Assembly (NCBI RefSeq): GCF_021057185.1
Contig: NZ_CP054059.1
Location: 840,001 to 872,000 of the forward strand
DNA from: Candidatus Absconditicoccus praedator
GTDB taxonomy: Bacteria > Patescibacteriota > Gracilibacteria > Absconditabacterales > Absconditicoccaceae
Length of the DNA stretch: 32,000 nucleotides
Direction: 5' to 3'
Shown: positions 1,087 to 30,894 of the stretch, piece after piece
Layout of the letters: each line of letters starts with the position of its first letter
How positions within the stretch are numbered: the stretch's first letter is position 1
Notes under the pieces: model-generated
Databases searched by the model: none
What the model was told of the DNA's origin: nothing
Seen by the model: only the letters and a program-made list of their open reading frames with translations
Translations under genes and position numbers: made by a program

Positions 1087-1126
1087 TTTGTTGGTATGAA
1101 ATACATTTATAAATAAAAACAAAAAA

Positions 1127-3649: not shown

Positions 3650-3757
3650 GTTGCTTATTTTTAAAATGTAAAGCAATTTTAGATAAAATACTTGCTCTTA
3701 ATGTTGTCTGTATTGTTTGTATTGATTGTGTTAATATTTGCTTATATCAAAATTAGC

Positions 3758-3785
3758 TTGAAAAGGAAATCAAAAAAAATATAAT
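3758..3785 (+). promoter_or_regulatory. sigma70-like promoter candidate for the hxs-type operon (TTGAAA, 16 nt spacer, TATAAT)
   Basis: ttgaaa at 3758-3763 and tataat at 3780-3785, about 50 nt upstream of ATG 3836, at the start of a 12-kb same-strand gene block. Confidence 0.3.
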
Positions 3786-3835
3786 TTATTTAGGTAAAAT
3801 TTAAGTTTGTTTATATTTTAATATAATCATGTGTT

Positions 3836-4030
3836 ATGTGAGAATTTAAATTAGATAGGGGTATATATACGAAGAAAATATTGGAAAAGTCTATTAAGGA
3901 ATTTGAAGATTATTGCTGAAAGAAAATAGATTATGATGAAAATAAAACTGAATTTACTTTGAAGTGTGAAGAAGATGATTTTGTTGATATAGTAGATAAT
4001 TATATTTATTTGTATAATGAAGCTAATTAG
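3836..4030 (+). CDS. 64-aa protein, truncated paralog of the N-terminal half of the downstream HxsD-like protein
   Basis: ATG 3836 to TAG 4028-4030. LDRGIYTKKILEKSIKEFEDY...DDFVDIVDNY aligns with VDGKIFDKKTILRAAYELVDK...DGIVDSF of the next gene. Stop lies 1 nt before the next ATG. Confidence 0.45.
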
Positions 4031-4031
4031 A

Positions 4032-4562
4032 ATGGAAAATTTTGTTAAAAAAATAGAAAAATGAACATTTAATTTTGAAATGGTAGTAGATTGAAAAATC
4101 TTTGATAAAAAGACTATATTAAGAGCTGCATATGAGCTTGTAGATAAAGTGTATATGTTTTTTAAGAAAGATGGGGATGATTTTGTTGTTCAGTTCAAGC
4201 TTAAAGATGAAAAACTAGATATGGATGGTATTGTAGATTCTTTTTGAGAAGAGTTGGTGTTTCATGATTTGAGGTCTCAGATAGATAAAAAAACAGGTAA
4301 AATGAAGGAAAGAATTATGGAAACAGCTTTAGGTTATGGTTTAACGTTAGAGGATGTTAAGTTAGATCTAGAAAAACTTCTTCCTTGATCGAACCCTTGA
4401 TCTCTTGATTGATGAGATGAGTGAGATCAAAAACAAAAGTCTATTGATGAAATAATGAAAGAAATAGAAAGTGATCCTGATTTTGAGGATGATAAAGATG
4501 AGATTTTGTGAATACTTAAGGAAATAGAAGAAGATGAGATGGAAAATAAAAAAGAAGGATAA
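4032..4562 (+). CDS. hxsD: HxsD-like His-Xaa-Ser system protein (176 aa) with acidic C-terminal tail
   Basis: ATG 4032 to TAA 4560-4562. Segment EELVFHDLRSQIDKKTGKMKERIMETALG resembles, from memory, the LLNDYxLRE signature region of the HxsD family (TIGR03976). Lies directly upstream of the HxsB-like and HxsA-like genes. Confidence 0.55.
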
Positions 4563-4591
4563 TTATTTACATTTATATAATCTTATTGGTG

Positions 4592-6010
4592 ATGGAAAAA
4601 ATCAATCTAAAAAATAAAAAAATATTGCCATTTAAATTTAAAAAACTAAAAAGTTGAAAATATTTTTTGAGTAATGATTTTTGACAATGGTTAATATTGT
4701 CTGAAAGAGAATTTAATGATTTTATTGATTGAAAAACTTCTTCTGAATTGGAAGATAGGTTGGTTTCAGCTGGTATGCAAAAATCAAGTAGATTAGATAA
4801 AAATGATGAAATGTATATTAAATATCTTGCTTGAAAATGGTTGAATAGATATCATTATATAATGCAATGACCAAGCTTGCATATAATAGTATTAACGTTA
4901 GCATGTAATCATTCTTGTAAATACTGTCATGCTAGTGCTAAAATCGATGATTCATGAAAATATCATTTATCAAATGAAAAGATAAAAAAGACTATAGATG
5001 TGATATTTAATACAACTGCATGAGCTATAGATATAGAATTTCAGTGATGAGAACCAACTGCTAATTGGGAAGGTTTGAAGTATGCTGTTGAATATATTCA
5101 TGAAAAAAACAAAGTGTATAATCTAAAAGTAAATATAAACTTAGTTTCAAATCTTACAATGATTGATGATGAGAAGATGAACTTTTTGTTAGATAATTGA
5201 GTAGATATTTCTACTAGTATAGATTGACCAAAAGAAGTTCATGATTGGAATAGAGCTTGGATAGGTGATACAAGTAGTTTTGAGACTGTTTCAAAGTGGG
5301 TTAAAAAAATTAATTTTGAGTATGAGAAAAGGTGACTTGAGAAAAAAGTATGAGCTATATGTACAGTTACAAATAAGCTTCTTGATAAACCACAAGAACT
5401 AGTAGATACTTATATAAGTTTATGACTAGATAATATATTTGTAAGACCTTTAAATCCTTATGGTATGGCTACGAAACTATGGGATAGTATAGGATATAAT
5501 TATGAAGAATACTGGAGCTTTTATGAAAAAATGTTAGATTATATAGAAAATAAGCAAGAAAAATGAATAAATATATCTGATACATACTCTCATAAAATAC
5601 ATTGTTGAAACTTAAGATCATCTAAAAGAATAAATTATATGGAAGAGAGGAGTCCTTGTGGTGCTGTGCTTGGTCAGGTAGCCTATAACTGGGATTGAGG
5701 AATATATACATGTGATGAATGAAGAATGCTAGCTCAAACTTGAGATTGTTCATTTAAGATATGAGAAATTGATAATAGATCTGCTGAAGAAATATATAAA
5801 TCTATGGTTTTAGATGTTGTAACAAAGGTTATGTTGTCTGCAAGTATTATAGACTATCTTCCTGGTTATGACACCAATCCAGTAAGTAATTATATATGAA
5901 CTTGCCCTATATACAGTTATACAATTAGTTGAAATATTAATAGTAAGTACAAAAAAGAAGATAGGTTTAAGCTTCAAGAAGATACTCTTGAAAGACTTGT
6001 AGATCAATAA
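4592..6010 (+). CDS. hxsB: HxsB-like radical SAM maturase with C-terminal Cys-rich (SPASM-like) region, 472 aa
   Basis: Read codon by codon from ATG 4592 to TAA 6008-6010 with no TAA/TAG. Motifs CNHSCKYC and QGGEPT (tga tga gaa cca). C-terminal CGAVLGQVAYNWDGGIYTCDEGR...GDC...GTCPIY. Immediately precedes the His-Xaa-Ser repeat gene. Confidence 0.75.
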
Positions 6011-6035
6011 TTTTTAAATATTAAAAATAATTTAA

Positions 6036-6500
6036 ATGATACATAAGAAAAAAAATATTAACTCAATGGTTAGACATGAAGATCAAAAGGTTTCTGGTAA
6101 AAAAACAAATTTACCTTTATATGTTTGAGCTTTGTTTGCTGCAGGAGCGTCTTCTGCATGAGTGTCTTCAGAGGAAAATATTAGTAAATATTTTGAAATA
6201 GAGTCTGCTTATGCTTTTAATTATGGTGTTAGTAATGATAGTAATACCCATCATACAGATACTGATGATAGCTGATTTGATAATGTTGAGGTTGAAATAG
6301 ATCAAAAAACTTTTACTATTGATAAAAATGTGAATGGGCATATTAGTTGATCTATAGATACAAGAAATTATGTAGGCTTATCTCATTGAAGTCATGGTAG
6401 TCATGCTAGTCATTGAAGTCATTGAAGTCACTGAAGTCACTGAAGTCATTGAAGTCACTGAAGTCACTGAAGTCACTGAAGTCACTGAAGTAGGTGGTAA
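6036..6500 (+). CDS. hxsA: HxsA-like His-Xaa-Ser repeat precursor protein, 154 aa
   Basis: ATG 6036 (alternative ATG 6066) to TAA 6498-6500. Hydrophobic N-terminal segment LPLYVGALFAAGASSAGVSS. C-terminus LSHGSHGSHASHGSHGSHGSHGSHGSHGSHGSHGSHGSRW. Confidence 0.85.
6381..6488 (+). repeat. 12 tandem 9-bp units (ag/tc)t-ca(t/c)-(tga/ggt/gct) encoding Ser-His-Gly/Ala
   Basis: Direct reading: tct cat tga, agt cat ggt, agt cat gct, then nine copies of agt ca[tc] tga. Lies inside the hxsA-like CDS. Confidence 0.95.
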
Positions 6501-6527
6501 TTTTTTTAAAATTTAAGTATAATATTA

Positions 6528-7970
6528 ATGTTTACAAATAAAGTGTTTGTTATGTTTTTTTCTTTAATATTATTCTTTTTTCTTGTAATATTTGTTTATT
6601 ATTTCTTAGTTAATGATAGGTCTATACATGAAAGTGATGGAGAATCTGCTTTGAATCAAGATGATGATAGAATTGAATTAGATGAGGAAAATGAAGAGGA
6701 AAATGAAGAGGAAAATGAAGAGGAAGAAGATTATGTAGAAAGTGTTGAGAATGCTCTAGGTTCAGATTATCTTGAAAGAGAAAGAGAACAATTTTGAGAA
6801 GATTTTAATAAAAATAGGCCTTTGACAGATGAAGAAATAGAAGAAACAAAAAAAATACTAGTAGAAGAGTATTGAGTTGATTTAGATGAACACAATAATA
6901 TAGAAGAACTTATAAAAGAAAATTATGAGCAAATTACTGTCGAATGAGGATTTGAAGTTGGTCGTGATTTGTCTAGTTCTGAAAGAGAACTTATAATATC
7001 TATTTTAGAGGATCATGAAGAAGCTTGAGATATACCAAATTTATCAAATCAACAAAAAGAAAATTTTGCTTATTGGATGGAAGTGGAAGATTTTCGTTAT
7101 TTTGTTAATAATCCTATTTATTATTTAAAAAAGTTTTTTAATGAACATGAAGATATAGATCATGATTCTGTTGAGCTAGAATTAAGAAATTTTATAAATG
7201 AACAAATAAATAAATGAACTTTCCCTAAAATGTCTAATAAAGAAATTAATAATTTTGTATCTTATATAGAACCTAATGATAAAGAAAATTTTATGAAAAA
7301 CCCTGAAAAATATATTGATGAATTTATTAGTGAGCAAAAAAGAAGTAGAGATTATGTTATGTCAAGCTGAGAGTATAAATTATGGAAGATGTTTTTAAGT
7401 TGAAATTCAGATGAAGCATTTGAAAAATTAAATAAGACTGCCGAAGAAGAATGATATAGAACTGATATATATGCAAAAATATTTAAAATATACAGTGACT
7501 ATATTTTTGGAACAAATTATTTTGAGTCAGAAGAAAAAGAAAGATTTTTTAGTTGTTTATCAACTTGAACTTATAATGAATCATTTGATGATGAAGTATT
7601 AGATAAGATTTGTGAATGAAAAGATGAAATTATATATTATGATGATGATTGAGAAGTTTTTGTTAACTATTGATTTGTTAATTATACACTTAATTATTTA
7701 AAAGAATTAAATGATTGAAATGAAGACAAATTAACTGAAATTTTGAATACTAATTATAATCATAACAACTTAAAAAGTAGTACATGAGAGAATTATGATC
7801 ATTGAAAAAAAATTTTATATTATTTAGTTTGAAAAGTAATTATTTGATATGATATAGATGTTATAAAAAATGATTATGATGAAATAGAACATTCTTTGGA
7901 AAATAACTGAGATTGTGAACAGATAAGTGATTCTAATTTAAAAAATTATTGTGAAAATATTTTTTATTAA
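6528..7970 (+). CDS. 480-aa membrane-anchored, highly acidic protein of unknown function
   Basis: Start matches track ORF 6528-6797. Read through in-frame TGAs line by line to TAA 7968-7970. N-terminal TM helix FVMFFSLILFFFLVIFVYYFLV, then EENEEENEEENEEEE. C-terminal module is paralogous to CDS 17773-18600. Confidence 0.7.
6684..6719 (+). repeat. 3 perfect tandem copies of 12-bp gaggaaaatgaa (EENE) plus a degenerate fourth unit
   Basis: Direct reading of gaggaaaatgaa x3 followed by gaggaagaagat, inside CDS 6528-7970. Confidence 0.9.
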
Positions 7971-7988
7971 TTCTTTTAATTGATTATT

Positions 7989-9074
7989 ATGCTAAAGAAA
8001 TATTATTGACCCTCGACTGAACGATGAAATTTAAAAGAAATAATTGTATGAGATGTAGAAAACTTTAACTTAAAAAATATTGAAGAAACATTTAAAGTTT
8101 TGTTTTGAGAAAATTTGAGGCATAGTACTTTTGAAAATTTTAAAGATTACCGTGTTGATTCACAAAAAATTAAAGAAAGACAGGAAGATTTAGATAATCT
8201 ATCAGAGCTTTTGAAAAAGCTTTGAGTGAAAGTTTATAGACCTGAAAGATTAGAAAGGGTAAAGGCTTTCAGAGGCCCATATTTTAAAGGTGTGATGTCA
8301 TCTGCTGCCAATCCTAGAGATTTGATTTTTGTTTATAAGGATAAAATTATAGAAAGCACTCCGTGAGGGGTGAACAGATATTTTGAAAAAGATTTATATT
8401 ATAAGATATTACAGGAAAAATTTGAAGAAGGAGCAGTATGGCTTTCTGCTCCAAGTCCTTCTTTTAGAAAAGGTCGTTTTGATTTTAAGGAATGGGATGA
8501 AAAAAGAGATTTTAAAAATTTTGATAGGTTAAAATATGATATAGTTTTTGAGGCAGCACATATGTTAAAATTGTGAGATGATATATTGTTTAATATATCA
8601 AGTTATATGCATGAGTTGTGAGCTGATTGGATGCAAAAAGTTTTGTGAAGCGATACAAGAATACATAAGGTTTATTACTTAGATGACAATCATATTGATT
8701 GAAAATTATCAGCTCTTAGTAGATGAATATTTTTGGCAAACAATGAATTAATGCAAAAAGATATTAAAAATTATTTGCCCAAGAAATTTCATGATTGGAA
8801 AGTAATTTATACCTGAGAAGAATCTGGGAAGTTTAATCATAACTCTTATTTGGATACTGATATGAACTATATTCAGCTTTGTAGTATGAGATGAGCAAAT
8901 ACTAATGTTTTGTCTATAAGTGAAAACAGAGTATTGGTTATGGATTATGCAGAAAAAACTATTAAAAAGCTGGAAGAAAATGGTTTTGATGTAATTCCAG
9001 TTAGAATGAGACATTGTGAATTGTTTGGGGGATGATTACATTGTGCTACTTTGGATTTAAAAAGAGAAGATTAA
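7989..9074 (+). CDS. Amidinotransferase-family enzyme (AGAT / StrB1-like guanidino-group transferase), 361 aa
   Basis: ATG 7989 to TAA 9072-9074, in frame with track ORF 8370-8576. Motifs ANPRDLIFVYKDKIIESTPGGVNRYFE...GAVWLSAPSPSF, DDNHIDG, and C-terminal FGGGLHCATLDLKRED, which matches the catalytic-Cys end of glycine / inosamine-phosphate amidinotransferases. Confidence 0.85.
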
Positions 9075-9079
9075 TATTG

Positions 9080-10012
9080 ATGGATAGACCTTTATTATTT
9101 GAAATAGTTATAACAAATTGATGTAATAAAAGATGTCCTTATTGTGATATTAATTTTGAAAGATGATTTATAAAAAATGAAGTTGTTGATAATTTCATTA
9201 AATCTATAAGAAATTATGATTGAGAGTTAGGGTGAATTCATATCAATTTTTTTTGATGAGAGCCTTTGTTGTGAAAACAACATATTGATCATGTTTTAAA
9301 ATCATTAGAAGAAATAAAAACAAAAATAACATATAGTTTGGTTACAAATTGATGGTTAATAGATGATTTTATTATAGAAAGAATATACAAATATGATATT
9401 AAAGTAGATATTAGTATAGATACTATAAATAATGATGTTTTGAAAGAAAATAAACATATAAAAGAGATTGCAAGCAGAGAAAAGACAAGTGTTAATTATA
9501 TATTTGTTCCTTGACAAATGAGTAATATTGAGGAAACAGCTGCTGTTATGAATGGTATCTGATTTGAAAATATTAATATAATACCAGTATATACTACTAT
9601 GAGTTGGAACAATGAAAATATAAAAATATTAGCAAAAAAAATTAATCAGTTTATCAAAATAAGTAAATCCAAAAATATATGATATTTTAAGTATGATAGA
9701 TGATTTTCCAGAGAAAGACAGTTTATATTAGATGTGTGAGGAGAAATATATCAGGATGTAGATAGTGATATTCGGCTTCAAAAGCAATATAATATTATTC
9801 CTGAATTTCTTAAAAAAAAGGTAGAAAATGAAATGTATCTATGAAATATAAACTATCAGAATTTAAATGAGATTATATGTTGATATGATGAGAGCGTTAT
9901 ATACAATTTGCTAAAAGAATTCGAACTTGAAATTTGAAAACAAAAAGAATATAAGAAAATAGATAAGATAATAGATTATTTTAGTATAATGACCAAAGCT
10001 AAGGATAGATAA
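9080..10012 (+). CDS. Radical SAM protein, 310 aa
   Basis: ATG 9080 to TAA 10010-10012. Motifs CNKRCPYC and FFGGEPLL (tga tga gag cct). Confidence 0.85.
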
Positions 10013-10039
10013 AATAATGTTTATTTTTTAAATTTAATT

Positions 10040-10927
10040 ATGAAAAAAAAAACTTCGGAAGTTACTACAGTTACCAGATGAATAGAAGTTGAACTAACAA
10101 GTATATGTTCTCTTAACTGTGAATTTTGTATTAAAAGTTATAGAACAGAGTTTGGTAACATGGATTTTGATACTTTTTCTAAAGTTGTAGATTTTATAAA
10201 ATTTCTTTGATGTATGGAAGTGGATATATCGTGAGTTGGTGATATTTTTCAAAATGATTCTTTGTATGAGTTTATAGATCATTTATTTGAAAAACTTCCT
10301 AATATAGATGCAGTTATTCCTACTAAATGACAGGATGTAACAATGGAAGATCTTAAAAAAATAAAAAGTTATAATGATAAAGGGTATAATATTACATTGA
10401 TGGCATCTGTAATATACTTAACTAAATGGAAATTTGATAAGTTTGTTGGTAGAAATCAATATGAAAAATTTGTTAAGTTTATAGATATGTTGAGGGATTC
10501 AGGAGTTAACTTTTCTCGAGAATTTGTGATACTAAAGAATAATTTGGATGATTTTGAGAAATTTAAAAAATTAGCTGAAAAAATAGGAAAAGAGTATGGA
10601 ACCTTGTTGGCATATAATTTTTGATGAAATCTTTCAGATGAAATTCATAAAAAATATTTTGATGAAGAAATTTTGAGAGATTATTTTGAATATAGGTCAA
10701 AGGAAGATGTATGTGAGGTGATGAAATATGATCATTTTTTTGTAGATTATAAAGGAGATGTATATATTTGTGCTAATATGGGTATAAATCCAGATGCATT
10801 GCTTTGAAATATAAATGATGTTTATCATGATTTTAATATTTTGTTAGAAAGAAAACAAGAATTTAGAAAAAAATATCATGATATTTGTAATAAATGTTTC
10901 TTTTATAAATATAAACTTCATGATTAA
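10040..10927 (+). CDS. Radical SAM protein with C-terminal Cys motifs, 295 aa
   Basis: ATG 10040 to TAA 10925-10927, in frame with track ORF 10343-10624. CSLNCEFC, then later CEV...GDVYICANMG...CNKC. Confidence 0.8.
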
Positions 10928-10929
10928 AA

Positions 10930-12303
10930 ATGATAACTCATACTTTTTATGCTTTAGTCTTATATCAGGCCCAAATATTATACAATCAAGATCTTTGAAA
11001 TGGTTACTTTCTTTTTGATATAAAAGAAAAAACTATGTGAAAAATAATTGTGGAGTTTAAAAAATGAAATAAAAAGAAAGGTATTTTATTTGTGCATAAA
11101 GATTTTAATACTGACAGAGTAGACTATCAAACAAATAATTGGTTTATTGTGTGAGAAAAGAGTTTGGTAGAATTTGTTTGAAAGAAAATATTAGATAATG
11201 AGCATGAAGATTTTAATTTTTTTAAGACATCTGAAGAATATATATGAAAAATATTTTGAGTGGTGCTTACAATAACAACTCATTGTAATCTGGCTTGCTA
11301 TTATTGTTTCAACGATTATGATTATAATTTAGATCAAAGAAACTTTATAAAACCTTTAACTTTTGAACAAATAAAGTGAATAGTTGATGATTTGTATAAA
11401 AATTGATGTAGAGATATTATAATTTCATGATGAGAACCCTTATTGCATTACGATTTTTTTAATATAATTGACTATTGTTTAAATAAGTGAATATATGTTC
11501 GTGTAAATACTAATTGAGATCTCTTGAATTCTAGAATAGTAGATAAAATAATTCAGTATCCTATAAACTTGATGGTTTCAATACACGAATTTAATGAAAA
11601 AGATTATGCATATACAAATGTTAGATGATTCAGTGAAATTTATAAAAAAGATGTGCCAGAAGAAGTTTTTTATAAAAAGTTTAGAAATAAAATAGAAAAT
11701 TTAAAAATAATATATAAATATCCTAATATTAATTTAGAGTTTATGACTATACTTGATAATAAAAATATTATAAACCTAGAAAAAATATATGATTTTTGCT
11801 TGAATCAATTTTGAATAACACAGTGGCATTTTTTTAGGCTATATAGTACAAAAATTTCTAAATGAATTTCAAAATGAATGATGTCACTTGCTATAAGAAA
11901 ATTGTACAATCTTAATAAAAAATATAATGTTGATTATAAAATAGTTGATGCAGTTCCTTTTTGTGTTACTAGAAAAACAGATTTGGCAGAAAAAGTAATT
12001 GAATGAGAATTAGCAGATAATCATAATGTAAAATTTATTATTACCAATGAATGAGGTTTTCAATTGATGTCATGATTTGATACTGTTGTTTGAAGTGTAT
12101 TTGAAGAATCTATTTCAGAACTTTTGAGTAAAGAATTTACTCAAAAGATGCTAAATAATTGATTTCTTCCAAATGAATGTTTGGATTGTGTGTATAAAAA
12201 TCATTGCAAGGGTGGAAGTAGAATGGAAGCACATATAGCTACCTGAAGCTATGCTGATTTTGATCCTTTATGAAAAATAGCAAATAAAAAATGTCAGATA
12301 TAA
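10930..12303 (+). CDS. Radical SAM protein with about 105-aa N-terminal extension and C-terminal C-x2-C-x5-C-x-G motif, 457 aa
   Basis: ATG 10930 (2 nt after the previous stop) to TAA 12301-12303. Motifs CNLACYYC, SGGEPLL (tga tga gaa ccc) and CLDCVYKNHCKGG. Confidence 0.85.
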
Positions 12304-13127
12304 GAATTGTAAATATATGTAATAATAATTGTATATATTGTCTAGAATCTTCTTATAGAAAAAAAAATAAGTATGAATCTTTAGATTATATTTATTTTCA
12401 AATAAAAGAAATTTCTAAAAACACAGATTTTCTATGAATTTTTGGATGAAATCCTTTGTTGCATCCAAATCTTTTGAATATCTTAAATTATGCAAGAACT
12501 CAAGGCATTAACAATATTTCCATACTTACTAATACTTATAAACTGGATAAAAATTTAATAAGTGATTTAGAAAAAAATTGACTAACTTGAATATGATTTT
12601 ATTTTAATACTTTTGATAAGTATACTCATGAATTAGTTAGTTGATGAGGAATATGATATGAGGAGTTATTAAAAAATATAAATTTAATTTCAAAATCAGA
12701 TCTATCTTATAAAGCAATTATTCATATAAATAAACAAAATATCGAAAATTTATATAAGGATGTTTTTATTTTATACAAAAAATTTGGTGTAGAAAGTTTT
12801 GAATTTATTTGATTTTTTCCATTTGACAAACCTTATGAAAAAAATAATAGAAATTTACTTTTTCTTGATTATAATAACTACAGAAAAAGCATAAATAAAT
12901 TGTTTGATGTTTTAGATAAAATTTGAGTAGAAACACATTTTATAAAATTTCCAAGAAGTTTTTTTGGGAACTATTGAAAATATTATGATTATAAATTTTG
13001 AGTATATGAGCAATTATGAAAAGAAGATATACAAAGGTTAAAAAAAACAGAACCGTATTGTAAAATAGAAAATAGGTGTAAATTTTGTTTTTTAATAGAT
13101 TATTGTAATAATGAATGAATAGCATAA
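12291..13127 (+). CDS. Radical SAM protein, 278 aa
   Basis: ATG 12291 overlaps the upstream stop by 13 nt; TAA 13125-13127. Motifs CNNNCIYC, FGGNPLL and C-terminal CKIENRCKFCFLIDYC. Confidence 0.8.
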
Positions 13128-13993
13128 CATTATTTTTAACTAATAAATGTAATTTGCATTGTGATTATTGTATAGTTAATATATGAAATAAATCGATTAA
13201 CGAAAACAATTTTTCTTGTCTATATAATTTTTTAAGTAAAAACATAAAAAAAATAGATACTATAAAATTTCTTTGATGAGAGCCATTGATTGAATATAAT
13301 AAAATTAAAAAAATAGCTAATATTTCTAAAAATATTAATTTTGAATTGGCTACTAACTGATATTTTATTAACAAGGAAATTGCTGATTTTCTGAAAGAAA
13401 AAAACTTCAAAGTTAACTTGTCTTTAGATTTTCAAAATAAAAACTATACTGAGAAATCCGAATATTTTAAAGGTTATAAAGATTTTTATTTTTCTTTGAC
13501 TTTGACACCTGAAAATCTTGATAATGCTTATGAATTTGTCAAAGGTTTTTATAAAAAATGATTTCGTAATTACAATATTTTACCTGTATTTTATAATAAT
13601 CTTTGGACTGATTCAGATATTGAAAAATTAAAATTATTGTATAAAAAACTTTTATCTTTGAAAATAGGATATAAAGAACTTTTTTTTGAGTGAGTTAATG
13701 ATGGGGACGAAAAGTTGTTGAATTATGATAAGATTTTTATAAATTACGATTGAGAAATTTTTTTATCAGATGTGGTGGAAAACTATATAGGAATATGATG
13801 AGATCTAAAAGATTCTGCTAAAATATGAAATATCAAAGATGTTGAAAATATAGATAGTTTGAATAAAATTATTAAAGAAAAAGAATACTTAATAGATAGT
13901 TATTTAAAAAGCTTTGAAGAAAAAGAAAAAAAATTATTTGATGTTGTGGATTATTTTTCAACTTATTATAATAAAATAAGTAAGTATTATTAG
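13115..13993 (+). CDS. Radical SAM protein, 292 aa
   Basis: ATG 13115 overlaps the upstream stop by 13 nt; TAG 13991-13993. Motifs CNLHCDYC and LGGEPLI (tga tga gag cca). Confidence 0.8.
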
Positions 13994-15654: not shown

Positions 15655-15899
15655 ATTTTTATTTGTATTTTCTGTATTCCAATAAATCAATGTCCGAATT
15701 AATTAAACAGTATCTATGTAATAAGTCATTAATCTTTTGAACTTCTACTTTAAAACAATCTAATAGATTTTCCTTTTCTTCATTTTGTAATTTTAGGCAT
15801 AATTAAAAAAATGTGCTACTATTTTAATTGCAATTTTGTGTTGCTATCTTTATAATTAAAATGAGTTAAATTTAAATTATTTATTTGATTTTAATTGAT

Positions 15900-18637: not shown

Positions 18638-19588
18638 CTATTTAAAAATTGATTTATTATGTAATATTTTTTTTATTTTTTCTTTTCATCATATATATTC
18701 TAAGAATTTTTTATTAAATCAATGACAATAATCATTAAATTTGCATTTTTTACAAAAACTTAATTTTTGCTTGTCTTCCAATATATGTTCTGTATTAGTT
18801 GTAAAACTTTTATTATTTATTAATGATTTGTACTCATCACTATATTTAGATAGATCTATTATACAAAATGGTGGTGCTGAAAAATGAAAGTTTATATCAA
18901 TATTATTCCTTTCACATAATGATACTATTTTTTTGATTTCTTTTACCTGTTTTGAACTAAAGTCTAATAACACTTCTCTTCTATTTTCTCGAGCATATCA
19001 ATTTGGGAATACAAGTCATATATTTAATTCTCTTTGAAAGAGTAAATCTATTATATCATGGTCTATTAAAAATTGTATAAAATGCTTTGTGTTATAAATA
19101 TTATTTTTTGTAATAACAATATTTATAGTTATTTTTAATTTCTTATGAATATTATTCTTTCTTATATAATTAAACCATTCTATAAATTCTTCTTTGTTTA
19201 AATTTGTTCACATTTTATTATTTATATTTTCATCATGAGAGTGTTGTCATATAAATAACATATCTAATCAATTATTTATTAAGCTATTTATTTTTTCTTT
19301 TTTTTTGAATAGTATTATTCAGTTTGTTTGTAGCTCTATTCATCAAAATCCAATTTTTTGAGCCATTTTAATATATTTTTCTATATTTTTATTTAATAGC
19401 GGTTCTCATCAAGAAAATGTTAAAACAGTATTTTTTAGGTCTGTCTTATTTTTTTTTGCTTTTAAAATTATATTATTAATGATTTCATCTTTTGTTATAT
19501 TTTTTTCAAAATTATTTGTTTCTATAATATTGCAAAAATTACATTTTAAATTGCAATAATAAGTAATTCTTATTACTTCATTTAACAT
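18638..19588 (-). CDS. Radical SAM protein with C-terminal C-x2-C-x5-C-x-G motif, 316 aa; paralog of CDS 22770-23822
   Basis: Extends track ORF 18719-18973 in both directions through TGA. ATG at 19588, TAG at 18638-18640. Motifs CNLKCNFC, SGGEPLL, QHSH and CKKCKFNDYCHG. Confidence 0.8.
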
Positions 19589-21427: not shown

Positions 21428-21521
21428 ATATAATTGTTTTTTTATTTTACTAAAATATTCTTGAATTAAACTATAAAAAACTTAGTATATTAGTATAATT
21501 TTAATTTAAAATATTTTGCTT

Positions 21522-22766
21522 ATGACTATAATTTCTTCTGAAAATAGAGTATGGGTAAGGATAAGTAATTCTTGTATAAGTTCTTGTATATTTTGTTTGG
21601 ATTCAGACAATTTAAAACAAAAAAGTTTTGTAGAAGATAAAATAATAAAGTATGAGTTAGAGAAGTCATATAAAAAATGATATAAAAATAAGGCTATAAT
21701 CTCTGGGTGAGAAGCTAGTATTAATCCTAAATTTATTGATTATATAAAATATGCAAGGGATGTTTGATATACAAAGATACAGACAATAACAAATTGATAT
21801 AAGTTTTGAAGTGAAAGTTTTACAAAAAAATGTATAGATAACTGACTTGATGAAATAACTTTTTCACTTCACTGACATACTCCTGAACTTCATGATAGCC
21901 TTACCTGATTAAAATGAGCTTTTAAAAATATTATAAAAGCAATTTATTATATAAGGAATAATCATCCAGAAACTATAATAAATTGTGATATTATTATTTG
22001 TAAACCTAATGTAGGTTATGCATATAAAATAGTGCAGTTATTGAAAAGGTTGCAAGTTTTTGAGTATGATATACTACAGATTGTCCCTCAGGCTTTAGCA
22101 TGGGAAAATAGAGGTGATTTGTTGTTTGATGATATATATAATCACAAAGAAAGTTTACACAAACTATGGAAAGAGTCTGAAGACAAAAGAGTACATATGC
22201 GAGCTAATAGGGTGTTTCCATGACTTTTAGAGTGATTTGAGGATATGATTCAATCTCCAGAAAAAATGTCAGATGAAGTTCTTAATGAGGCTAAGAAGGA
22301 GTGGGAAAGAGTCTTTAAAAAAAGAAAATTGCCTGAGTGTAGAGATGAAATTAGGTGTGCAAATTGTTATATGAATTGGTTTTGTGATAACCTAAATGAG
22401 TTCTATTTTTCTTCAAATAAAAAAAATAAAAAAGAAAAACTTTTCTCACATAGAAGTATTGATAAAATAAATGAAATTTATCCAGCTGATATTGTTAATT
22501 TTAAATGAGAAGTATTTGGTAGGGATGTTTTAAATCTTCCATACTGTTTATCTTGAAAAAATAATTCATTTACAAATTTTAATGATTATTTGCTAGAACA
22601 TAAAATACAAGCAAACATAGTTAATTTTACTAATTGGTTTATGGATGAATGATTTAGAATAAAATCAACTTGATGTAAAGAATGTAAACTATATAATTCT
22701 TGTAAGTGAATTCATATAAATTTTATAAAAAAATACTGATTTAAAATACTTAATCCAATTAAATAA
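21522..22766 (+). CDS. Radical SAM protein with C-terminal C-x2-C-x5-C-x-G motif, 414 aa
   Basis: ATG 21522 to TAA 22764-22766, in frame with track ORFs 22032-22223 and 22245-22508. Motifs CISSCIFC, SGGEAS, CRDEIRCANC and CKECKLYNSCKG. Confidence 0.8.
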
Positions 22767-22769
22767 TAA

Positions 22770-23822
22770 ATGGTTCAATATATAAATGAGATAATAAGAA
22801 CAAATTATAAGTGTAATCGAAAATGTAAGTTTTGTAATGTACTAAAAACAAATAATTATTGAGTTGTAGATGTTTCTGATTGAGAAGTTATAAATAAAAT
22901 TTTAGAAATTGCTAGAAAATATAATGAAGATCAATTAAAGTATGTAACAATTTCCTTTTCATGATGAGAACCTTTAATGAATAAAAATTTAGAAAAATAC
23001 ATAAAACTAGCAAAAAAAATATGAATATGAACTGTAGAAATACAAACTAATTGAATATTGTTAATCAATAATAAGTTTAAAATTAATAAACTATATGATG
23101 CTTGATTGGATGAAATTTTTATAGCACAACATAGCCATAAAAATGATGTAAATTATAGTTTATGATGCTTTTTGGACACAAAAAAACTAGAGGAGCGAGT
23201 TTTCTATGTTAAAAAAAATAATATTTATACACATGAGAAAAATCAACATTGAGTTTCAATTTATTTAAATATTGTTATTACAAAAATTAACTTGCCCTAT
23301 TTAAAAGAATTTTTATTATATCTAAAAAAAATATGATTTATTGATTTAATAGAACCTAGGCATCATTTTGATTGAAACTGAAATTTGGAAAAGGTGACAA
23401 GGAAAATATCTTTATGATTTGTTCAGCCTCATTGATATGCTTGGGAATATTGAAAAGAGGTATTGCTCGATTTTAATGATGAACAAAAAAGATATATAGA
23501 GGAACTAATAAATTACTGTGAAGAAAATGATTTGTTGCCGGATATTCATTTTGTGGGTCCTCCTCTTTGCTTGATGTATTATCCCAAGTATAATTTAGAA
23601 TATAACAGGTTGAAGAAAATAGAGGAAGATAAAAAAAAGTGACTTCAAAACGATGAAAATATCGACACATTCAGAGTTTTACAGAAAGAAAAAAGTAAAC
23701 TTAAAGAGTGTGAAAGATGCAAATATAACAAATTTTGCTTATGAATATACAAGGCACGATTAGAGTTTTTTGGAGAAGAATATGCTAGGAAAAAAATTAA
23801 TGAATTTATAAAAAAACAGTAA
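22770..23822 (+). CDS. Radical SAM protein, 350 aa; paralog of CDS 18638-19588
   Basis: ATG 22770 to TAA 23820-23822. Motifs CNRKCKFC, SGGEPLM, QHSH, GYAWEYGKEVLLDF and CERCKYNKFCLG. Confidence 0.8.
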
Positions 23823-23826
23823 TATA

Positions 23827-24789
23827 ATGAATATTTGATATTTACAAATAACTAGAATATGTAATCATAAATGTATATTTTGTTCTAACCCTTCAAATGG
23901 TAATTTTTTATCTTTATCTGAAATAGAAGATTCAGTTAAAATACTAAAAAAAGAATGATTTAATTCTATTATAATAACATGATGAGAGCCTACTATTCAT
24001 CCAAATTTTATTGATGTTGTAAATATTATTAAAAATAATTGAATTGAAGCTAGAGTAATAACTAATGGGTACCTATTTTCAAAAACTGAAAATGTAAAAC
24101 AAATTAAAGATGCATGAATAAATATTGTTCATTTATCGGTTTATACATATAAAAAAGAGTTAAACGATAAAATTAGAGAGTATCCTTGAGCATTTGATCA
24201 AATGGTTAAAGCTATTATAAATTTAAAAAAGTATTGAATTACTACTCAAATAACTTCTGTAATTACAAAATATAATCAAGATCATTTGGATAAAACAGTA
24301 AAATTTATTAAAAAACTAAATCCAAATATATCACATTTTGTTCGAAATGTTATGGATCCTGAAATGATGCCAAAAAAATGAAAAGATAAAAAAGATGAAA
24401 TATTACCTGACCTGGAAAAGGCTGGTAATAGCTTGGTTCAAATATTTAAATATTTAGAAAGTATATGAAATACTTTTAGGGTTGAAAAAATGCCACTTTG
24501 TTTCATACCTTGATATGAGTGGGCTAATACTGAATGTAGAAAGATAGTAAAAGATGAAAAAAGATATGTTCGTTTTTTGGACTTTAGAGAAAAAATTAAT
24601 GAGTCTTGAAGAGATTTTCAACATTGATTGCTTGATGATTGTAAAAATTGTATATTAAATGAAATATGTTGATGAGTATATGAAAATAAAAAACGATATA
24701 ATTATATAAATGTGAAACCCAAATGAATTGATTATAAAGGCAATTTAGAAAAGATAATTTTAAAGATAAAATGAAAAACAAAAGGATAG
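23827..24789 (+). CDS. Radical SAM protein, 320 aa
   Basis: ATG 23827 to TAG 24787-24789. Motifs CNHKCIFCSNPS, TGGEPT and CKNCILNEICGG. Confidence 0.8.
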
Positions 24790-25679
24790 AGATACCGTTG
24801 TGATGGAAGTGTAATGAAAGGTGTTTTTTTTGTAGTGAAACAGAGTTGATAGAATATCATAAGTGAAAGTCATTAAGTTTTGAGTATTTTTATAAGTTGC
24901 TAATTTCTTATTATAAAGAAGGTTATAATCATTTAACAATAGTATGATGAGAACCAACTATAGAGAAAAACTTTATGAAAGCAATAAAGTTAGCAAAAAA
25001 ATTATGAATGTGAGTGCAGATATCAACTAACTGATTAAGGTTTGAGGATGAGGTTTTTAGTAAAGAGGCAATGAAGTATATAGACCGAATAACATTATCA
25101 GTTCATACAATAGAAGATGATTTATTTAAAAAGATTACACAAACGAATATAGATTGATGGAAAAGTAGGCTTGAAAAGATATTAAAAAATATTTGAAAAT
25201 ATAAAGATAATCATGAAATAAGAATAAATTATGTGTTAACAAATTACAATATAGAGCATTTAAAAATATTAGACACTATAAATTATATAGAGAAAAATTT
25301 GCCTAATTACACATCTTTTGTACTAACTTATCCGGATATTACAGTTATAGAATCTGGAGAATTAACAAAAAAAATTAAAGTTAAAAAAGATGATTTATTT
25401 TCTTCTTTAGAAATACTTTATGAAAAACTTTCATCTGACCAAACTAGGAAATTGGTATTGGCAGATATGCCATTTTGTTTTGTTCCAGAGGAATTACATG
25501 GGAATTTACAAGATAATTTTATGGCATTAGATAGTATATCAAAAATATTTATAAAGGATGAAAAAAAGAAGCATGATAGGAATAAAGTAGACCCTAGGTG
25601 AAGATTTAAAGCAAATCAATGTAATAATTGTAAGTATTCTCATACATGTTTTTGATTTCCTAACATATTTGAGTTTTAA
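24771..25679 (+). CDS. Radical SAM protein, 302 aa
   Basis: ATG 24771 overlaps the upstream gene by 19 nt; TAA 25677-25679. In frame with track ORF 25233-25601. Motifs CNERCFFC, VGGEPT and CNNCKYSHTCFG. Confidence 0.8.
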
Positions 25680-26929
25680 AGCATTTTTTTGTAGTTTAGT
25701 CAAAATCTGTTTTTAGGGTCTTTGAAAATTAAATAAGATTCGAAAAGACTTTTAGAAATGAATTTTGCATTGTTTGGGTGAGTTTCAATTTTTTCTGGGT
25801 GTCAATTATTATAAATTATTTTAAAATTGTAAATATTATTTTTTTTAAACAGTTTTATTGCATTATTTATATTTTTATAAATTACTAATATTTTATGAAA
25901 TCATAATGGTGTGGTTTCCGATGTTGGTGTTTTAAATTTTTCTGCCAGCTCTTTCCTTCTTATAAAGTTGTGTTTTTGTACAGTTTCTATGGAGCAAAAG
26001 TGTATATAATACGTAGGTTTTTCATTTTTTATTATGTCATGTATTAGCTTTAAAGAAGTTAGTTTACTTCATAATATAGGATATTCTTTTTTAGAAATTC
26101 AATAATACTTTTCTACTAGTTCACCTTTTTGTAAGTCTATTTTGTAATTTAATTTATTATAAATAGTGTTGTGATGTCAGTTATATGTCATTTCATTTAG
26201 ATTAAATCAATTTATTGCATTTTGATCCGATAGTTCTTTCATAATTTTATACATATATTCATAAGTATCAGGTTGTACTGGCATTTCTATAAGTACTGAG
26301 GGGATATATTTTTTTGAAAGTTTGTATAGTTCTGTTTTTGGTTTTTCATAGGGTTTTATGCTGTATCTAAGTTCTGATACTCATTTGTCTTTTAATTTTT
26401 TTAATATTTCTTCATCAATAAAATCTCAAGTAGTATAGATTCTTTTTATAACTCAGCTGTATTTTTCATTTACATAATCTAGAATTTTGAATACTGTTTT
26501 TTTGTGTAAAAATGGTTCTCATCATGTGATTGCTAGGGTTTTGTTGTTTTTGTTTGTGCTGAATGTGTCGTCTATGATTCTTAGACTTTTGTTGTAATCT
26601 TTTTGATTTGTGGCTGCGTTAAAACTATTTTCTGGGCATAAAGGATTTTTTTCATAACAAAAAAAACAGCTTCTATTACATAAATAGCTAATTACAATTG
26701 TGCATCATTGTCATTTTATGCATTCAGAACATCATATAGATCTTCACCCATAAAATAATCAGTCTCAAATTCCTGTGAAAGAAACTCATTCTAATGATCT
26801 TAAATTTTGTTTTATAAAATCTAAATTTTCCTTAGATTCTTTTTTTAATTCAATATCTCAAAATTCTTTAATTCTGTTTTGTATGAATTTTTCTCTAATT
26901 TTTTCTATATTTTTTAGTTCTTTGTTCAT
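25676..26929 (-). CDS. Radical SAM protein with an extra upstream CxxC, 417 aa
   Basis: ATG at 26929 (in-frame stop 2 codons upstream), TAA at 25676-25678, overlapping the convergent stop within TTAA. Motifs CSECIKG, CNRSCFFCY and TGGEPFL. Confidence 0.75.
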
Positions 26930-27730: not shown

Positions 27731-28984
27731 TTAGCTTTTGATTCACTCTTTTCTATTTTTTGCAATTTGTAATAATTCTTTTGGGCTCAAAAATATTAAT
27801 CAGTAAAATCATATATTTTTTTCTTCTCAATTGTAATATAAGTACCTATCATCTTCAATTATAATATTATTTTTGATTAAGAAATCTATTTCTTCTTTAA
27901 ACATGTCTTTAATGTTTTTATTGAACTTTTTTTTGAAATCTATTTTGTCTATTTTATCTTGAAAGGATTTTAAAGTATATGATAGAATCTCATAATTATT
28001 ATCTAATTTTTCTATAGAAAAAATAAATTTTCAATTTTTAAAAAAACTTGTTTCATAACTTCATAGATTTCGAACTTTAGAAATGCTTTTGTATCAAACA
28101 CCAAAAATAGATTTTTTTTCATTAGAATACAATCAAAAGCTTTTTTTACTGTTTCAAGATTTTTTATGTTTAAAAATATATCACAACACATTGTTCAATT
28201 TTGTTGTGTTATATTTGTTTTTTATTTTACTGCCTTTAATTGTTTTTGTAAATAAATTTTCCAAATTGTCATAAAATTTATCTCAATATTTTATATATAT
28301 ATTATTTGTCTTGTTTTGTTCTTTCATTACAGTGTAATATGTGATGCTATCAGGCTCACACTCTTTTAATATATTTAAATTACTTATAAAATCACTTATG
28401 TCATCATCTCATAATCATAGAACTAAATCTGTATTTATGAATTCTATTCATACTTTTTTTCAGTAACTTATAAATTCTTTAATTGTTTCTTTATCTACGT
28501 ATCTTCTATTTTCTTTTTCTAGTGTGTTCTTATTGAATGATTGGACTCAAAAGCTTATTCTATCAAATCATAGATCTTTTACTTTTTTTATTTTAGATAA
28601 TGATGTAGAGCAGGGATTTAATTCTATTGTTTTTTGATAGTCTTTATTGAATTTAAAGTTTTTAAAAATATATCAAAATATGTCCTCCATCTCACTTTCA
28701 TTTAATGTGCTAGGAGTTCCTCATCAAACATAAATTCAGCTAAATTCAACTTTCTTAAATAAATCTATAAAATTGTATAAAAAATTTTTAACATCTAAGA
28801 TATAATCTTTTTTTTGTTTTTGATTTGTTAGCAAAAGTTTGTCATACATACAATATTTACAAATTTTTTCACAAAATGGAATATGTAAGTAAAAACTAAT
28901 GGGATGGTTGTTGTCTATAATCTTTAAGTGTTTTTTTCGTAGATTTATTATTTCTGTTTTGCTTACTTCTTTTTTTTTGTTCAT
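27731..28984 (-). CDS. HemN/HemW-family (coproporphyrinogen-III-oxidase-like) radical SAM protein, 417 aa
   Basis: Extends track ORF 28736-28984 through TGA to TAA 27731-27733. Motifs SFYLHIPFCEKICKYC, YVGGGTPS, ISFGVQSF and DLVLGLGDDD. An alternative in-frame ATG lies at 29065. Confidence 0.85.
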
Positions 28985-29151
28985 ACTAAACCTATCAAAT
29001 AAAAAATCATGTCATGGATTTATCAATTTTTTTATTATTCTTCTTTTTTTTTCAATAGAATTCATGTAGAGTAAATAAAATCTAAAAAGTTCTTGAAAAA
29101 ATATTATTTTTTTATAAACTTAATTCAAGTTTATTTTGATATAAATATTGA

Positions 29152-30066: not shown

Positions 30067-30894
30067 ATGAAAAAGATTGTTATTTACTGAAAGTGATGAA
30101 TTTGAAAATCTACTGTTTCAACTCACTTAAGTGTATATTATGCTCTTAATTGATATAAAGTGCTTCAAGTTGGTTGTGATCCCAAACATGATTCAACAAA
30201 AAGGCTGCTTCCTAAAAATACTGATATAAAAACTGTTATAGATATAACAAAATATTATGATATAGATGAGATTTCTAAAGATATGTTTGTATATAGTTGA
30301 AAATTCTGAATAGATTGTGTAGAGGCTGGTTGACCAATTGCATGAATTTGATGTGCCTGAAGATGAATATCATTAATGTTTGAGATTTTTGAAGAAGTTG
30401 ATTTGCTGCAGACAAGTAACTATGATATAGTTATATTTGATGTACTATGAGATGTGGTTTGTTGATGATTTGCTTCGCCATTAAAAATTTGATTTGCAGA
30501 CAGTGTTTATCTGGTTACCTCTGAAGAAATAATGTCTTTGTATGCAGCAAATAATATTGCTAGAGCAGTAGTTAATTACTCAAGAAATTGAATTGATTTA
30601 TGAGGATTGATTTTAAATCAAAGGAGTAATGATGTTGATATTGCCCCAGTAAAAGGTTTTGCATATAGTATATGAACTAAAATTATATGAACTGTTCCTA
30701 GGTCTAATGAACTTTTGGAGATGGAAAAAAAATGAAAAACAGTTTTTGAAGATGATTCTTTAAGTTATTCCACTATTGTAAAACATTTTAAAGGGATTGC
30801 AGATAATATTGATGAATCTAGATGAGTTGTGCCTACTCCGTTTGATGACAAAGAATTTGATGACTTTGTTTTTTACAACTTTCAAAAAAAGTAA
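30067..30894 (+). CDS. NifH/BchL/CfbC-family nitrogenase-iron-protein-like ATPase, 275 aa
   Basis: ATG 30067 to TAA 30892-30894. Walker A YGKGGIGKST (30085-30114, all four Gly are TGA), VGCDPKHDST, CVEAGGPIAGIGCAGRGI and DVLGDVVCGGFA, so both [4Fe-4S]-ligand Cys are present. Confidence 0.9.

Follow-up and report, generated by a model that had tools for sequence, protein, structure and literature searches.

What matures the repeat peptide of a His-Xaa-Ser (Hxs) system that has no recognizable second maturase beside the first one, and do the numerous radical SAM genes that follow belong to the same system? This question is raised by positions 3836-6500 of a 32,000-nucleotide stretch of the genome of Candidatus Absconditicoccus praedator, a tiny predator from the SR1/Absconditabacteria lineage (contig NZ_CP054059.1, positions 840,001 to 872,000; hereinafter, the window), where a preliminary description had delineated four co-directional genes separated by 1-29 nt; both the coordinates and the gaps (1, 29 and 25 nt) are reproduced when TGA is read as a sense codon. 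As argued below, these genes probably constitute the core of an extended Hxs peptide-maturation system of the CPR (Candidate Phyla Radiation) type, which would operate along the lines of the maturation mechanism that we propose. The Hxs core as such is already annotated, and it is the extended architecture that is undescribed in the searchable literature.

The hxs core and the genetic code of the host

The Hxs families TIGR03976-TIGR03979 are credited to Haft and Basu (PMC9062424), and variants were added to NCBIfam later (HxsA2, HxsA3, HxsA4, HxsC4 and HxsD_rel). The hidden Markov model (HMM) search suggested in the preliminary description, with a lack of significant Hxs matches named as the refuting outcome, yielded matches above the NCBIfam cut-offs for HxsD, HxsB and HxsA4, with HxsD_rel and HxsC4 remaining below. 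Because the three matches are significant, 3836-6500 is a His-Xaa-Ser locus, as originally proposed.

HxsB, the radical SAM/SPASM-type maturase (4592..6010, + strand; 472 aa; UFX83288.1), matches TIGR03978 with 413.8 bits against a cut-off of 370, over model positions 1-445 of 466; it carries the CX3CX2C motif at residue 105 as well as invariant Cys 356, 374 and 438, and is 31% identical to the Aeromonas HxsB. NCBI already names this protein 'His-Xaa-Ser system radical SAM maturase HxsB' and uses the HxsB name for proteins from many Gracilibacteria and other CPR metagenome-assembled genomes (MAGs) as well, so that the core is known at the annotation level. The solved structures nearest to HxsB are those of CteB and anSME, and the structure search found none for any Hxs protein. 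The CteB/SCIFF maturase, anSME and PapB, the nearest solved or characterized relatives of HxsB, share with it the radical SAM core and the C-terminal auxiliary-cluster domain, and act on ribosomal peptides. However, HxsB scores far below the family cut-offs of the SPASM maturases of ribosomally synthesized and post-translationally modified peptides, and both the HxS substrate motif and the chemistry differ. In pairing a small ribosomal precursor with a radical SAM/SPASM enzyme and a small accessory protein, the system is analogous to PqqA/PqqD/PqqE of pyrroloquinoline quinone (PQQ) synthesis and to MftA/B/C of mycofactocin synthesis, but there is no membership in these families by sequence, and the PQQ and mycofactocin precursors contain neither repeats nor an export signal.

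The window is AT-rich (20-31% GC), and a table-11 reading of positions 3000-8000 yields only short open reading frame (ORF) fragments; long co-directional genes appear in the hxs region once TGA is read as sense. The radical SAM motif GGEP of HxsB is spelled TGA-TGA-GAA-CCA, 16 of the 22 TGA codons of hxsB align with columns where Gly is the majority residue in the homolog alignment, and TGA accounts for 428 of the 577 Gly codons (74%) in the window genes. Thus, the window genes use code 25, with TGA encoding Gly, in agreement with the recoding noted earlier. The recoding is nevertheless incidental and not a distinguishing feature of the locus as had been thought, given that CPR bacteria with the standard code share the architecture.

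The four genes belong to a longer co-directional run on the + strand, 3836-13993, in which the gaps are 29 nt at most or are replaced by small overlaps, and no terminator-like sites were found between the genes of this run. Therefore, the tight packing joins hxsDBA to five radical SAM genes. The best sigma-70-like promoter match in the 186-nt gap before the first hxs gene, TTGAAA-16-TATAAT at 3758..3785 (+; 11 of 12 positions), is consistent with an operon start, the total of such sites in the region being not above chance.

An extended architecture shared across phyla

We compared the locus with canonical loci from Aeromonas and Leptospira plasmids, with Gracilibacteria loci reached via HxsB homologs, and with 80 loci obtained by scanning GTDB species genomes with an HxsB alignment (individual loci are denoted by L numbers). 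Locus flanks were 10 kb, and orthologs were defined as best phmmer hits, with at least 250 bits additionally required for the 297-aa radical SAM protein discussed below as C297; ORF calling is crude on the high-GC Myxococcota loci, and tblastn ranking penalizes TGA-recoded genomes. The closest relatives of HxsB come from Peribacteria and Gracilibacteria, other CPR phyla, Elusimicrobiota, Myxococcota, Omnitrophota and a few archaeal MAGs.

The extended architecture places radical SAM genes after those for a small protein, HxsD, HxsB, an HGS-repeat HxsA and a membrane protein. It recurs in Gracilibacteria (L002, L004, L005 and L012) and in standard-code genomes of Azam-, Buchanan-, Parcu-, Moranii- and Saccharibacteria and Omnitrophota. 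In genomes with the standard code, hxsD-(small)-B-A is followed by orthologs of the HemN-like gene and of the radical SAM genes that start at 13115, 10930, 21516, 23827, 24771 and 29152 in the window; the loci include Azambacteria L016, Buchananbacteria L020, Parcubacteria L023 and L037, Moraniibacteriota L055 and L080, Saccharibacteria L083 and Omnitrophota L077. Because these orthologs follow hxsD-B-A across phyla, the extra radical SAM enzymes are largely a conserved component of this Hxs variant rather than a peculiarity of one genome. Among 24 CPR loci, HxsD was detected in 17, an HxS precursor in 16, at least three extra radical SAM genes in 13, and an ortholog of C297 within 10 kb in 7. 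The absence of HxsC and the presence of additional radical SAM genes, which the preliminary description noted as differing here, hence turn out to be the conserved architecture of an entire clade of HxsB relatives.

No paper on the extended cluster type in Gracilibacteria or Absconditabacteria and no description of a CPR-type Hxs architecture with a multi-enzyme radical SAM suite were found in the searchable literature. PADLOC 2023 contains no Hxs models and returned only weak pVip-like radical SAM matches.

The HxsA precursor and its repeats

The HxsA-type precursor (6036..6500, +; 154 aa) matches NF038313 (HxsA4) with 56.7 bits against a cut-off of 55, through the repeat region alone; the scores with HxsA2 (18.2; cut-off 48) and HxsA3 (16.7; cut-off 65) are below the thresholds. 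As previously noted, the protein combines a hydrophobic N-terminal segment with a C-terminal HxS repeat. Its N-region is basic (net charge +5 over 25 residues) and leads into a signal-like hydrophobic segment (residues ~24-45; maximum Kyte-Doolittle value 1.36), an acidic 70-residue spacer, the (HxS)12 array and a C-terminal Arg-Trp. The 12 consecutive units span residues 117-152 (6384..6491, +), with Xaa being Gly in 11 of them, in each case encoded by TGA, and Ala in one; at the DNA level, this is a 9-bp tandem array of 11.3 copies. In the six frames of the whole window, the HxsA array is the sole run of at least three HxS units. An exact look-up of HxsA, in the 154-aa or the 144-aa form, found no entry in the protein collection.

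Precursors with (HGS)3-22 were identified in 30 loci, encoded immediately after hxsB or one gene further and ranging from 76 to 174 aa. The family has a conserved leader, lPkIKKdIKaFLtsEEGkIsKKd, then a hydrophobic segment that often ends in an Ala-x-Ala-like motif, and (H-G/A/S-S)3-22, with Trp, Tyr, GGWC or Cys at the C-terminal end. The window HxsA is a divergent member of this family with a longer spacer; related Gracilibacteria precursors match HxsA3 via the leader. In other code-25 genomes, the Gly residues of the repeat are encoded mostly by GGA, GGT and GGG, so that the TGA-rich repeat in the window reflects the codon usage of the genome alone.

An independent assembly of the same organism (L001; Logan contig SRR15691272_1090) is 100% identical to the window over the shared genes and ends inside the 9-bp HGS array, at a point equivalent to window position ~6443. 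Because this contig breaks within the array, repeat numbers taken from assembled genes of this kind call for caution.

HxsD and a small HxsD-like protein

HxsD (4017..4562, +) consists of 181 aa when translated from the ATG at 4017 (UFX83287.1, named 'His-Xaa-Ser system protein HxsD' by NCBI) or 176 aa from the ATG at 4032; the 4032-4562 product scores 54.1 bits with TIGR03976, above the cut-off of 50. Orthologs are present in L002, L004 and L005. The C-terminus of the window HxsD is an acidic, helix-like extension. The C-termini of HxsD in L016, L023, L037, L049, L060, L076, L080 and L083 contain a strongly conserved extra motif, DDPLGIAVPWEEKYGKKK, which is found in HxsD of the extended clusters outside Gracilibacteria and is absent in canonical HxsD; in the window HxsD, the acidic tail replaces this motif.

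Upstream of hxsD, a gene at 3836..4030 (+) encodes a 64-aa protein (UFX83286.1, 'hypothetical protein' in NCBI) that was initially regarded as a fragment paralog resulting from tandem duplication of hxsD. With NF038315 (HxsD_rel), by which NCBIfam already models a small HxsD paralog, this protein yields 22.7 bits over model positions 2-45 of 62 (E 8e-5), short of the cut-off of 41. A BLASTP comparison with HxsD found no significant match, and a single-sequence search of 1.84 billion representatives retrieved only the protein itself, one 59-aa relative and one spurious match; such searches fail because the family is too divergent. In the 25 loci that were aligned, however, hxsD/hxsB is adjoined by a member of a family of 60-99-aa proteins, which shares the pattern K-I-Y...A-I..A-I..F...EF-x-N-Y-V-L and spans CPR phyla, Omnitrophota, Myxococcota and archaeal MAGs. 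The window and L002 have this gene upstream of hxsD, whereas in L004, L005 and most of the others it separates hxsD from hxsB. In an hhalign comparison, the small family matches positions 13-81 of the HxsD core with a probability of 94.7% (E 6e-8). Accordingly, the duplication scenario is abandoned: judging from these comparisons, the 64-aa protein is an ancient, conserved mini-HxsD paralog rather than a recent tandem duplicate or a fragment. We also considered whether the small paralog or HxsD replaces the N-terminal domain of HxsC and rejected this possibility, the hhalign probability with the N-domain of the Leptospira HxsC being ~0.1%.

The missing HxsC and the radical SAM suite

Canonical HxsC proteins consist of 378-401 aa, with ~105 residues ahead of CX3CX2C. 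The preliminary description reported no HxsC next to hxsB and counted 13 other radical SAM genes after it. Both statements hold: all 13 genes (identified below by their start positions) encode proteins with CX3CX2C, and none of the products reaches the cut-off for HxsC (TIGR03977; 267.9) or HxsC4 (NF038332; 500). The best HxsC score in the window is 120.5 bits (23827-24789) and the best HxsC4 score is 140.7 bits (29152-30045); neither gene adjoins hxsB. The same two proteins, 29152 and 23827, are the best window matches of canonical HxsC queries and, together with 21516 and 22770, have HxsC or HxsC4 as their top NCBIfam match. Seven proteins (12291, 18638, 21516, 22770, 23827, 24771 and 29152) show an HxsC-type layout, with CX3CX2C at residues 10-20 and CxxCx5C near the C-terminus. 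Canonical HxsC was not found in any of the 80 related loci, where only weak matches of 89-101 bits were obtained.

Five of the suite genes lie within the packed run. The first (9014..10012, +) resembles the N-terminal half of PapB/HxsB, has no SPASM Cys motif, and has orthologs in L002, L004 and L012. It is followed by a radical SAM/SPASM protein recognized by profile match and Cys motifs (10040..10927, +) and by a NirJ/AhbD-like radical SAM/SPASM protein (10930..12303, +), whose orthologs score 301 bits in L083 and 455 bits in L092. Next come an HxsC-like paralog of 278 aa (12291..13127, +), for which HxsC is the top match at 53.8 bits, far below the cut-off, and which has the C-terminal CxxCx5C and an L092 ortholog (265 bits), and the last gene of the run (13115..13993, +), with a PapB/HxsB-like N-terminal half and orthologs that come after hxsA in L020, L037, L080 and L083.

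Further downstream, HxsC-like paralogs predominate. The 416-aa product of 21516..22766 (+) has HxsC4 (105 bits) and HxsC (64.7 bits) as its two best NCBIfam matches and orthologs at 180-250 bits in L020, L023, L037, L040, L054, L055, L083 and L092; the 350-aa product of 22770..23822 (+) matches HxsC4 best (78.7 bits) and has an L092 ortholog at 338 bits. The 320-aa product of 23827..24789 (+) attains the window maximum on TIGR03977 given above, is the best window match of the Leptospira HxsC, and has orthologs at ~190-220 bits in many loci. A 302-aa paralog (24771..25679, +) is assigned by its Cys layout and profile scores, and another paralog is encoded on the opposite strand (18638..19588, -). 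The remaining members are a 417-aa radical SAM protein recognized by profile match (25676..26929, -), a HemN/HemZ-like radical SAM protein (27731..29065, -; HemZ 135 bits and HemW 130 bits, both under the cut-offs), of a kind that recurs across related hxs clusters, and C297 (29152..30045, +; UFX83310.1). The products of 23827 and 29152 are annotated by NCBI as plain 'radical SAM protein'. Among the 14 radical SAM genes, 18638-19588 (-) and 22770-23822 (+) are by far the closest pair (41% identity), and an insertion sequence of the IS3 family lies between them.

The two best matches of C297 are HxsC4, over the full length, and HxsC (94.2 bits), both under the cut-off, and its identity across CPR phyla is 55-67%. 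A C297 ortholog comes immediately after hxsB in L008/L009, L044 and L029, and in L016, L037, L041, L054, L055, L077, L080 and L083 one lies no more than 10 kb from hxsB, a proximity far above that of chance placement in genomes of 1-5 Mb. In the present genome, C297 closes the radical SAM island, and 23 kb separate it from hxsB. The family scores of C297 and the recurrent proximity of its orthologs to hxsB make it the best candidate for the role of HxsC. In L010/L011 (Buchananbacteria; 1352-3751), a C297 ortholog with 59% identity adjoins a polytopic membrane protein containing a prepilin-peptidase-like GGDAKL motif, and hxs genes are missing from its surroundings, a context that hints at a role beyond Hxs.

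Other genes in the neighborhood

The gene directly after hxsA encodes an N-terminally anchored 480-aa protein (6528..7970, +). A single-pass membrane protein is encoded after hxsA in most related loci, with poor conservation of the sequence; an attempt to treat these proteins as one family was given up, as they split into tiny clusters and the HMM of the largest cluster misses the window protein, so that position and the N-terminal anchor alone are conserved. The C-terminal half of 6528-7970 is paralogous to 17773-18600, ~10 kb downstream (35% over 250 aa), and neither protein matched any family in the scanned libraries. The next gene of the packed run, two genes downstream of hxsA, encodes a 364-aa protein of the arginine-deiminase/amidinotransferase fold (7980..9074, +). 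Its PF02274 match (25.6 bits; cut-off 22.8) covers the C-terminal 55 residues alone, including the catalytic-Cys motif GGGLHCATLD, and weak matches to the dimethylarginine dimethylaminohydrolase/arginine deiminase models of NCBIfam were also obtained.

On the other side of the hxs genes, directly upstream, the product of 1088-3649 is a large protein rich in Gly, Asp and Asn, which has a hydrophobic segment at the N-terminus and matched no Pfam family; a counterpart is located upstream of hxs in L002 (379-3306; 33% identity over 716 aa). No Rfam families or tRNAs were found in the window.

Within the radical SAM island, the IS3-family pair (19774-20953, -) consists of the overlapping orfA (20639-20953; HTH_Tnp_1) and orfB (19774-20736; rve and HTH_21), and separates 18638-19588 (-) from the block that starts at 21516. 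The genes 15885-16877 and 16903-17640 look like a split enzyme related to phosphoenolpyruvate (PEP) synthase and rifampicin phosphotransferase, one of them containing the swivel His domain PF00391 and the next one weakly matching PEP synthase positions 101-308. A PEP-utilizer protein is also encoded in the hxs clusters of L002 and L023; that the split enzyme phosphorylates the Ser residues of the repeat is pure speculation. A U32-peptidase-like gene (14222-14980) encodes 252 aa compared to 327 aa in its L092 ortholog, and a 34-codon ORF in the 228-nt gap ahead of it is a possible missing N-terminus, so that the gene may be split or frameshifted.

The window ends with a pair of nitrogenase-related genes, with 14 radical SAM genes upstream. 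The first encodes a NifH-like ATPase (30067..30894, +; PF00142, 266.7 bits), a nitrogenase-reductase paralog rather than a true NifH, which scores below the cut-offs for nifH, CfbC and BchL, is 100% identical to a Ca. Absconditicoccus praedator protein, and has closest homologs that include those from Elusimicrobia and Gracilibacteria. The second is a NifD/K-like (Oxidored_nitro) ORF that runs past the window end (30897..32000, +; PF00148, 39.4 bits, cut-off 28.6). In L092, a Gracilibacteria locus, a Nif-like trio (7117-10819) is surrounded by genes orthologous to eight window radical SAM genes and to the U32-like gene. Of the 80 scanned hxsB loci, L035 and L041 have a NifH-like gene within 10 kb of hxsB, and the remaining 78 have none. 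Hxs may therefore be linked to clusters of Nif-like and radical SAM genes.

Meheust et al. (2020; bioRxiv 10.1101/765248) described nitrogenase paralogs of group VI amid radical SAM genes, both in Elusimicrobia and Myxococcales and in two genomes of Gracilibacteria, and proposed tetrapyrrole reduction as the function of these clusters. As in these clusters, the NifH-like and NifD/K-like genes of the window have many radical SAM neighbors, one of which is HemN-like, the NifH-like protein being a possible member of group VI. The term 'His-Xaa-Ser' has 0 occurrences in the passages of the preprint that were consulted, whereas in the window the suite is contiguous with hxsDBA.

Comparison with the characterized Hxs system of E. 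coli

The preliminary description considered the product and the chemistry of Hxs systems undetermined. With respect to function, this view is outdated; the exact chemistry of the modification does remain open. The HxsD-B-C-A operon of E. coli (HXS) prevents DNA entry and thereby confers protection from 110 of 113 coliphages, none of the four genes being dispensable (Li et al., Nat Commun 2026, PMC13128918). According to the same study, the E. coli HxsA has five basic HxS repeats in addition to a signal peptide and a peptidoglycan-binding domain; its N-terminal cleavage, a +8 Da modification and its periplasmic accumulation depend on HxsB, HxsC and HxsD alike; the modification maps to one repeat with the SHRSS motif; and HxsC binds HxsD. 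Hxs systems were found almost exclusively in Pseudomonadota (99.7%), with 99.6% in the order D-B-C-A (PMC13128918).

The window locus shares with the E. coli system HxsB and HxsD as defined by the curated cut-offs, the tandem HxS repeats, the N-terminal export-like segment and an LLNDYxLRE-type motif of the small HxsD partner, here GEELVFHDLR. It departs from the D-B-C-A order, having instead small hxsD-like, hxsD, hxsB, hxsA. Canonical HxsC is absent, and in its stead there are truncated HxsC-like paralogs, the best one 23 kb away; an extra small HxsD paralog and 13 further radical SAM genes are present. The 12 HGS repeats of the window HxsA are non-basic and are located at the extreme C-terminus, unlike the five Arg/Ser-rich repeats of the E. 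coli protein, and the peptidoglycan-binding domain that E. coli HxsA contains is lacking. The host, moreover, is a CPR bacterium, probably without an outer membrane.

A proposed mechanism and the alternatives

From these comparisons, we propose the following scheme. HxsA would be made as a precursor in which a spacer joins the basic, leader-like N-region and a hydrophobic segment resembling an export signal to the (His-Gly-Ser)12 core. HxsB, acting in the cytoplasm together with at least one N-terminally truncated HxsC-like enzyme, for which C297 is the first candidate, would modify His and/or Ser residues of the repeat, whereas HxsD and the small HxsD paralog, by comparison with the HxsC-HxsD complex of E. 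coli, might present the substrate or bind the enzymes. The remaining radical SAM enzymes of the suite could add further tailoring. HxsA would then lose its N-terminus and, as a modified, His-rich peptide, be exported to the cell surface, where, by analogy with E. coli HXS, it might shield the envelope from phage DNA entry; this last step is the weakest part of the scheme.

Several observations weigh against this scheme, in whole or in part. The HxsA4 match is marginal and confined to the repeat, the canonical HxsA model does not match the 6036-6500 protein, and the repeats contain neither Arg nor Lys, nor was a peptidoglycan-binding Pfam domain found. None of the 13 radical SAM proteins is of HxsC grade, and the HxsC-like ones lack the ~105-residue N-terminal domain of the canonical enzyme. 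C297 is much more conserved than HxsB (55-67% vs ~40% identity) and is encoded without nearby hxs genes in L010/L011, and because of both features it may have a function of its own. In L004 and L005, housekeeping genes adjoin the cluster, which together with the wide conservation is unlike a typical defense island. The analogy with anti-phage defense is weak because the HGS repeats lack basic residues and there is no peptidoglycan-binding domain, although the model for E. coli depends on precisely these two features; the housekeeping neighbors and the unusually conserved C297 also imply that the E. coli function is not simply transferable.

The main rival explanation is a pathway for a peptide-derived cofactor or metallophore. 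Under this scenario, which we regard as unlikely, the hxs core is the substrate module of a larger pathway, comprising ~13 radical SAM enzymes, the U32-like protein, a methyltransferase, the split PEP-synthase-like phosphotransferase and the NifH/NifDK-like reductase, which would yield a peptide-derived cofactor, metallophore or modified polymer rather than a defense effector and, similarly to PQQ and mycofactocin made from small precursors, might have a core physiological role in CPR bacteria. The orthologs of the suite that follow hxsD-B-A across phyla agree with this scenario, as do the Nif-like trio of L092, set among eight radical SAM orthologs and the U32-like gene, and the NifH-like genes near hxsB in L035 and L041. 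The closest HxsB relatives, from CPR, Elusimicrobiota and Myxococcota, parallel the group VI clusters reported from Elusimicrobia, Gracilibacteria and Myxococcales in the preprint cited above; the very high conservation of C297 and the housekeeping neighbors point in the same direction, and non-basic HGS repeats are easier to reconcile with binding of metals or with a sacrificial substrate than with binding of DNA. An export-like hydrophobic segment, however, would be unusual in a cofactor precursor, 78 of the 80 hxsB loci have no Nif-like genes within 10 kb, and the sole experimental data on Hxs point to a protein effector (PMC13128918). A more specific proposal is that hxsD-B-A is the substrate/recognition module of superclusters of nitrogenase paralogs and radical SAM enzymes, with a (His-Gly-Ser)n peptide, not a tetrapyrrole, as the real substrate that at least 10 radical SAM enzymes and the Nif-like reductase would convert into a new peptide-derived cofactor or surface polymer; we consider this unlikely as well.

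Two further alternatives dissociate the precursor from the enzymes around it. The same radical SAM families come after hxsA in many phyla with no Nif-like genes nearby, all hxs ORFs are intact, the packing up to 13993 ties hxsDBA to five radical SAM genes, and the adjacency of hxsB and C297 is repeated in unrelated loci. It is thus improbable that hxsDBA and the radical SAM/Nif-like island are independent neighbors, such that the island is responsible for a tetrapyrrole-type cofactor and hxs works without HxsC or decays, notwithstanding the lack of an HxsC-grade protein in the window, the IS3 element within the island, the HemN-like and NifH/CfbC-like proteins suggestive of tetrapyrrole chemistry, and the occurrence of C297 without hxs in L010/L011. 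That HxsA is an unmodified, secreted, His-rich metal-binding protein, with the neighboring enzymes acting on other substrates, seems highly improbable: His-rich tails commonly bind Ni or Zn, and the repeats contain no other functional residues, but HxS-repeat proteins strictly co-occur with HxsB and HxsD across hundreds of genomes, and maturation of the E. coli HxsA requires both radical SAM enzymes (PMC13128918). An extended Hxs peptide-maturation system thus remains the reading that we favor.

Implications

A function was first assigned to Hxs in 2026, and only for the compact four-gene form from Proteobacteria. The locus analyzed here, along with ~30 related loci, represents a second, much larger form of Hxs in CPR bacteria and other poorly known phyla, which is characterized by a non-basic (HGS)n precursor without a cell-wall anchor, an extra HxsD paralog, the absence of canonical HxsC and a conserved set of radical SAM enzymes, and is linked to nitrogenase-like reductases in some genomes. 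The locus supplies a concrete list of candidates for the missing HxsC. If the suite acts on HxsA, two puzzles, namely the chemistry of Hxs and the role of the group VI nitrogenase-paralog clusters, would be joined into one. Should the superclusters indeed process a (His-Gly-Ser)n peptide, those of CPR, Elusimicrobia and Myxococcota would yield a cofactor or polymer important to an episymbiotic or predatory lifestyle. Few SR1 bacteria have been cultivated, and Ca. Absconditicoccus praedator is among them, which makes the question experimentally approachable.

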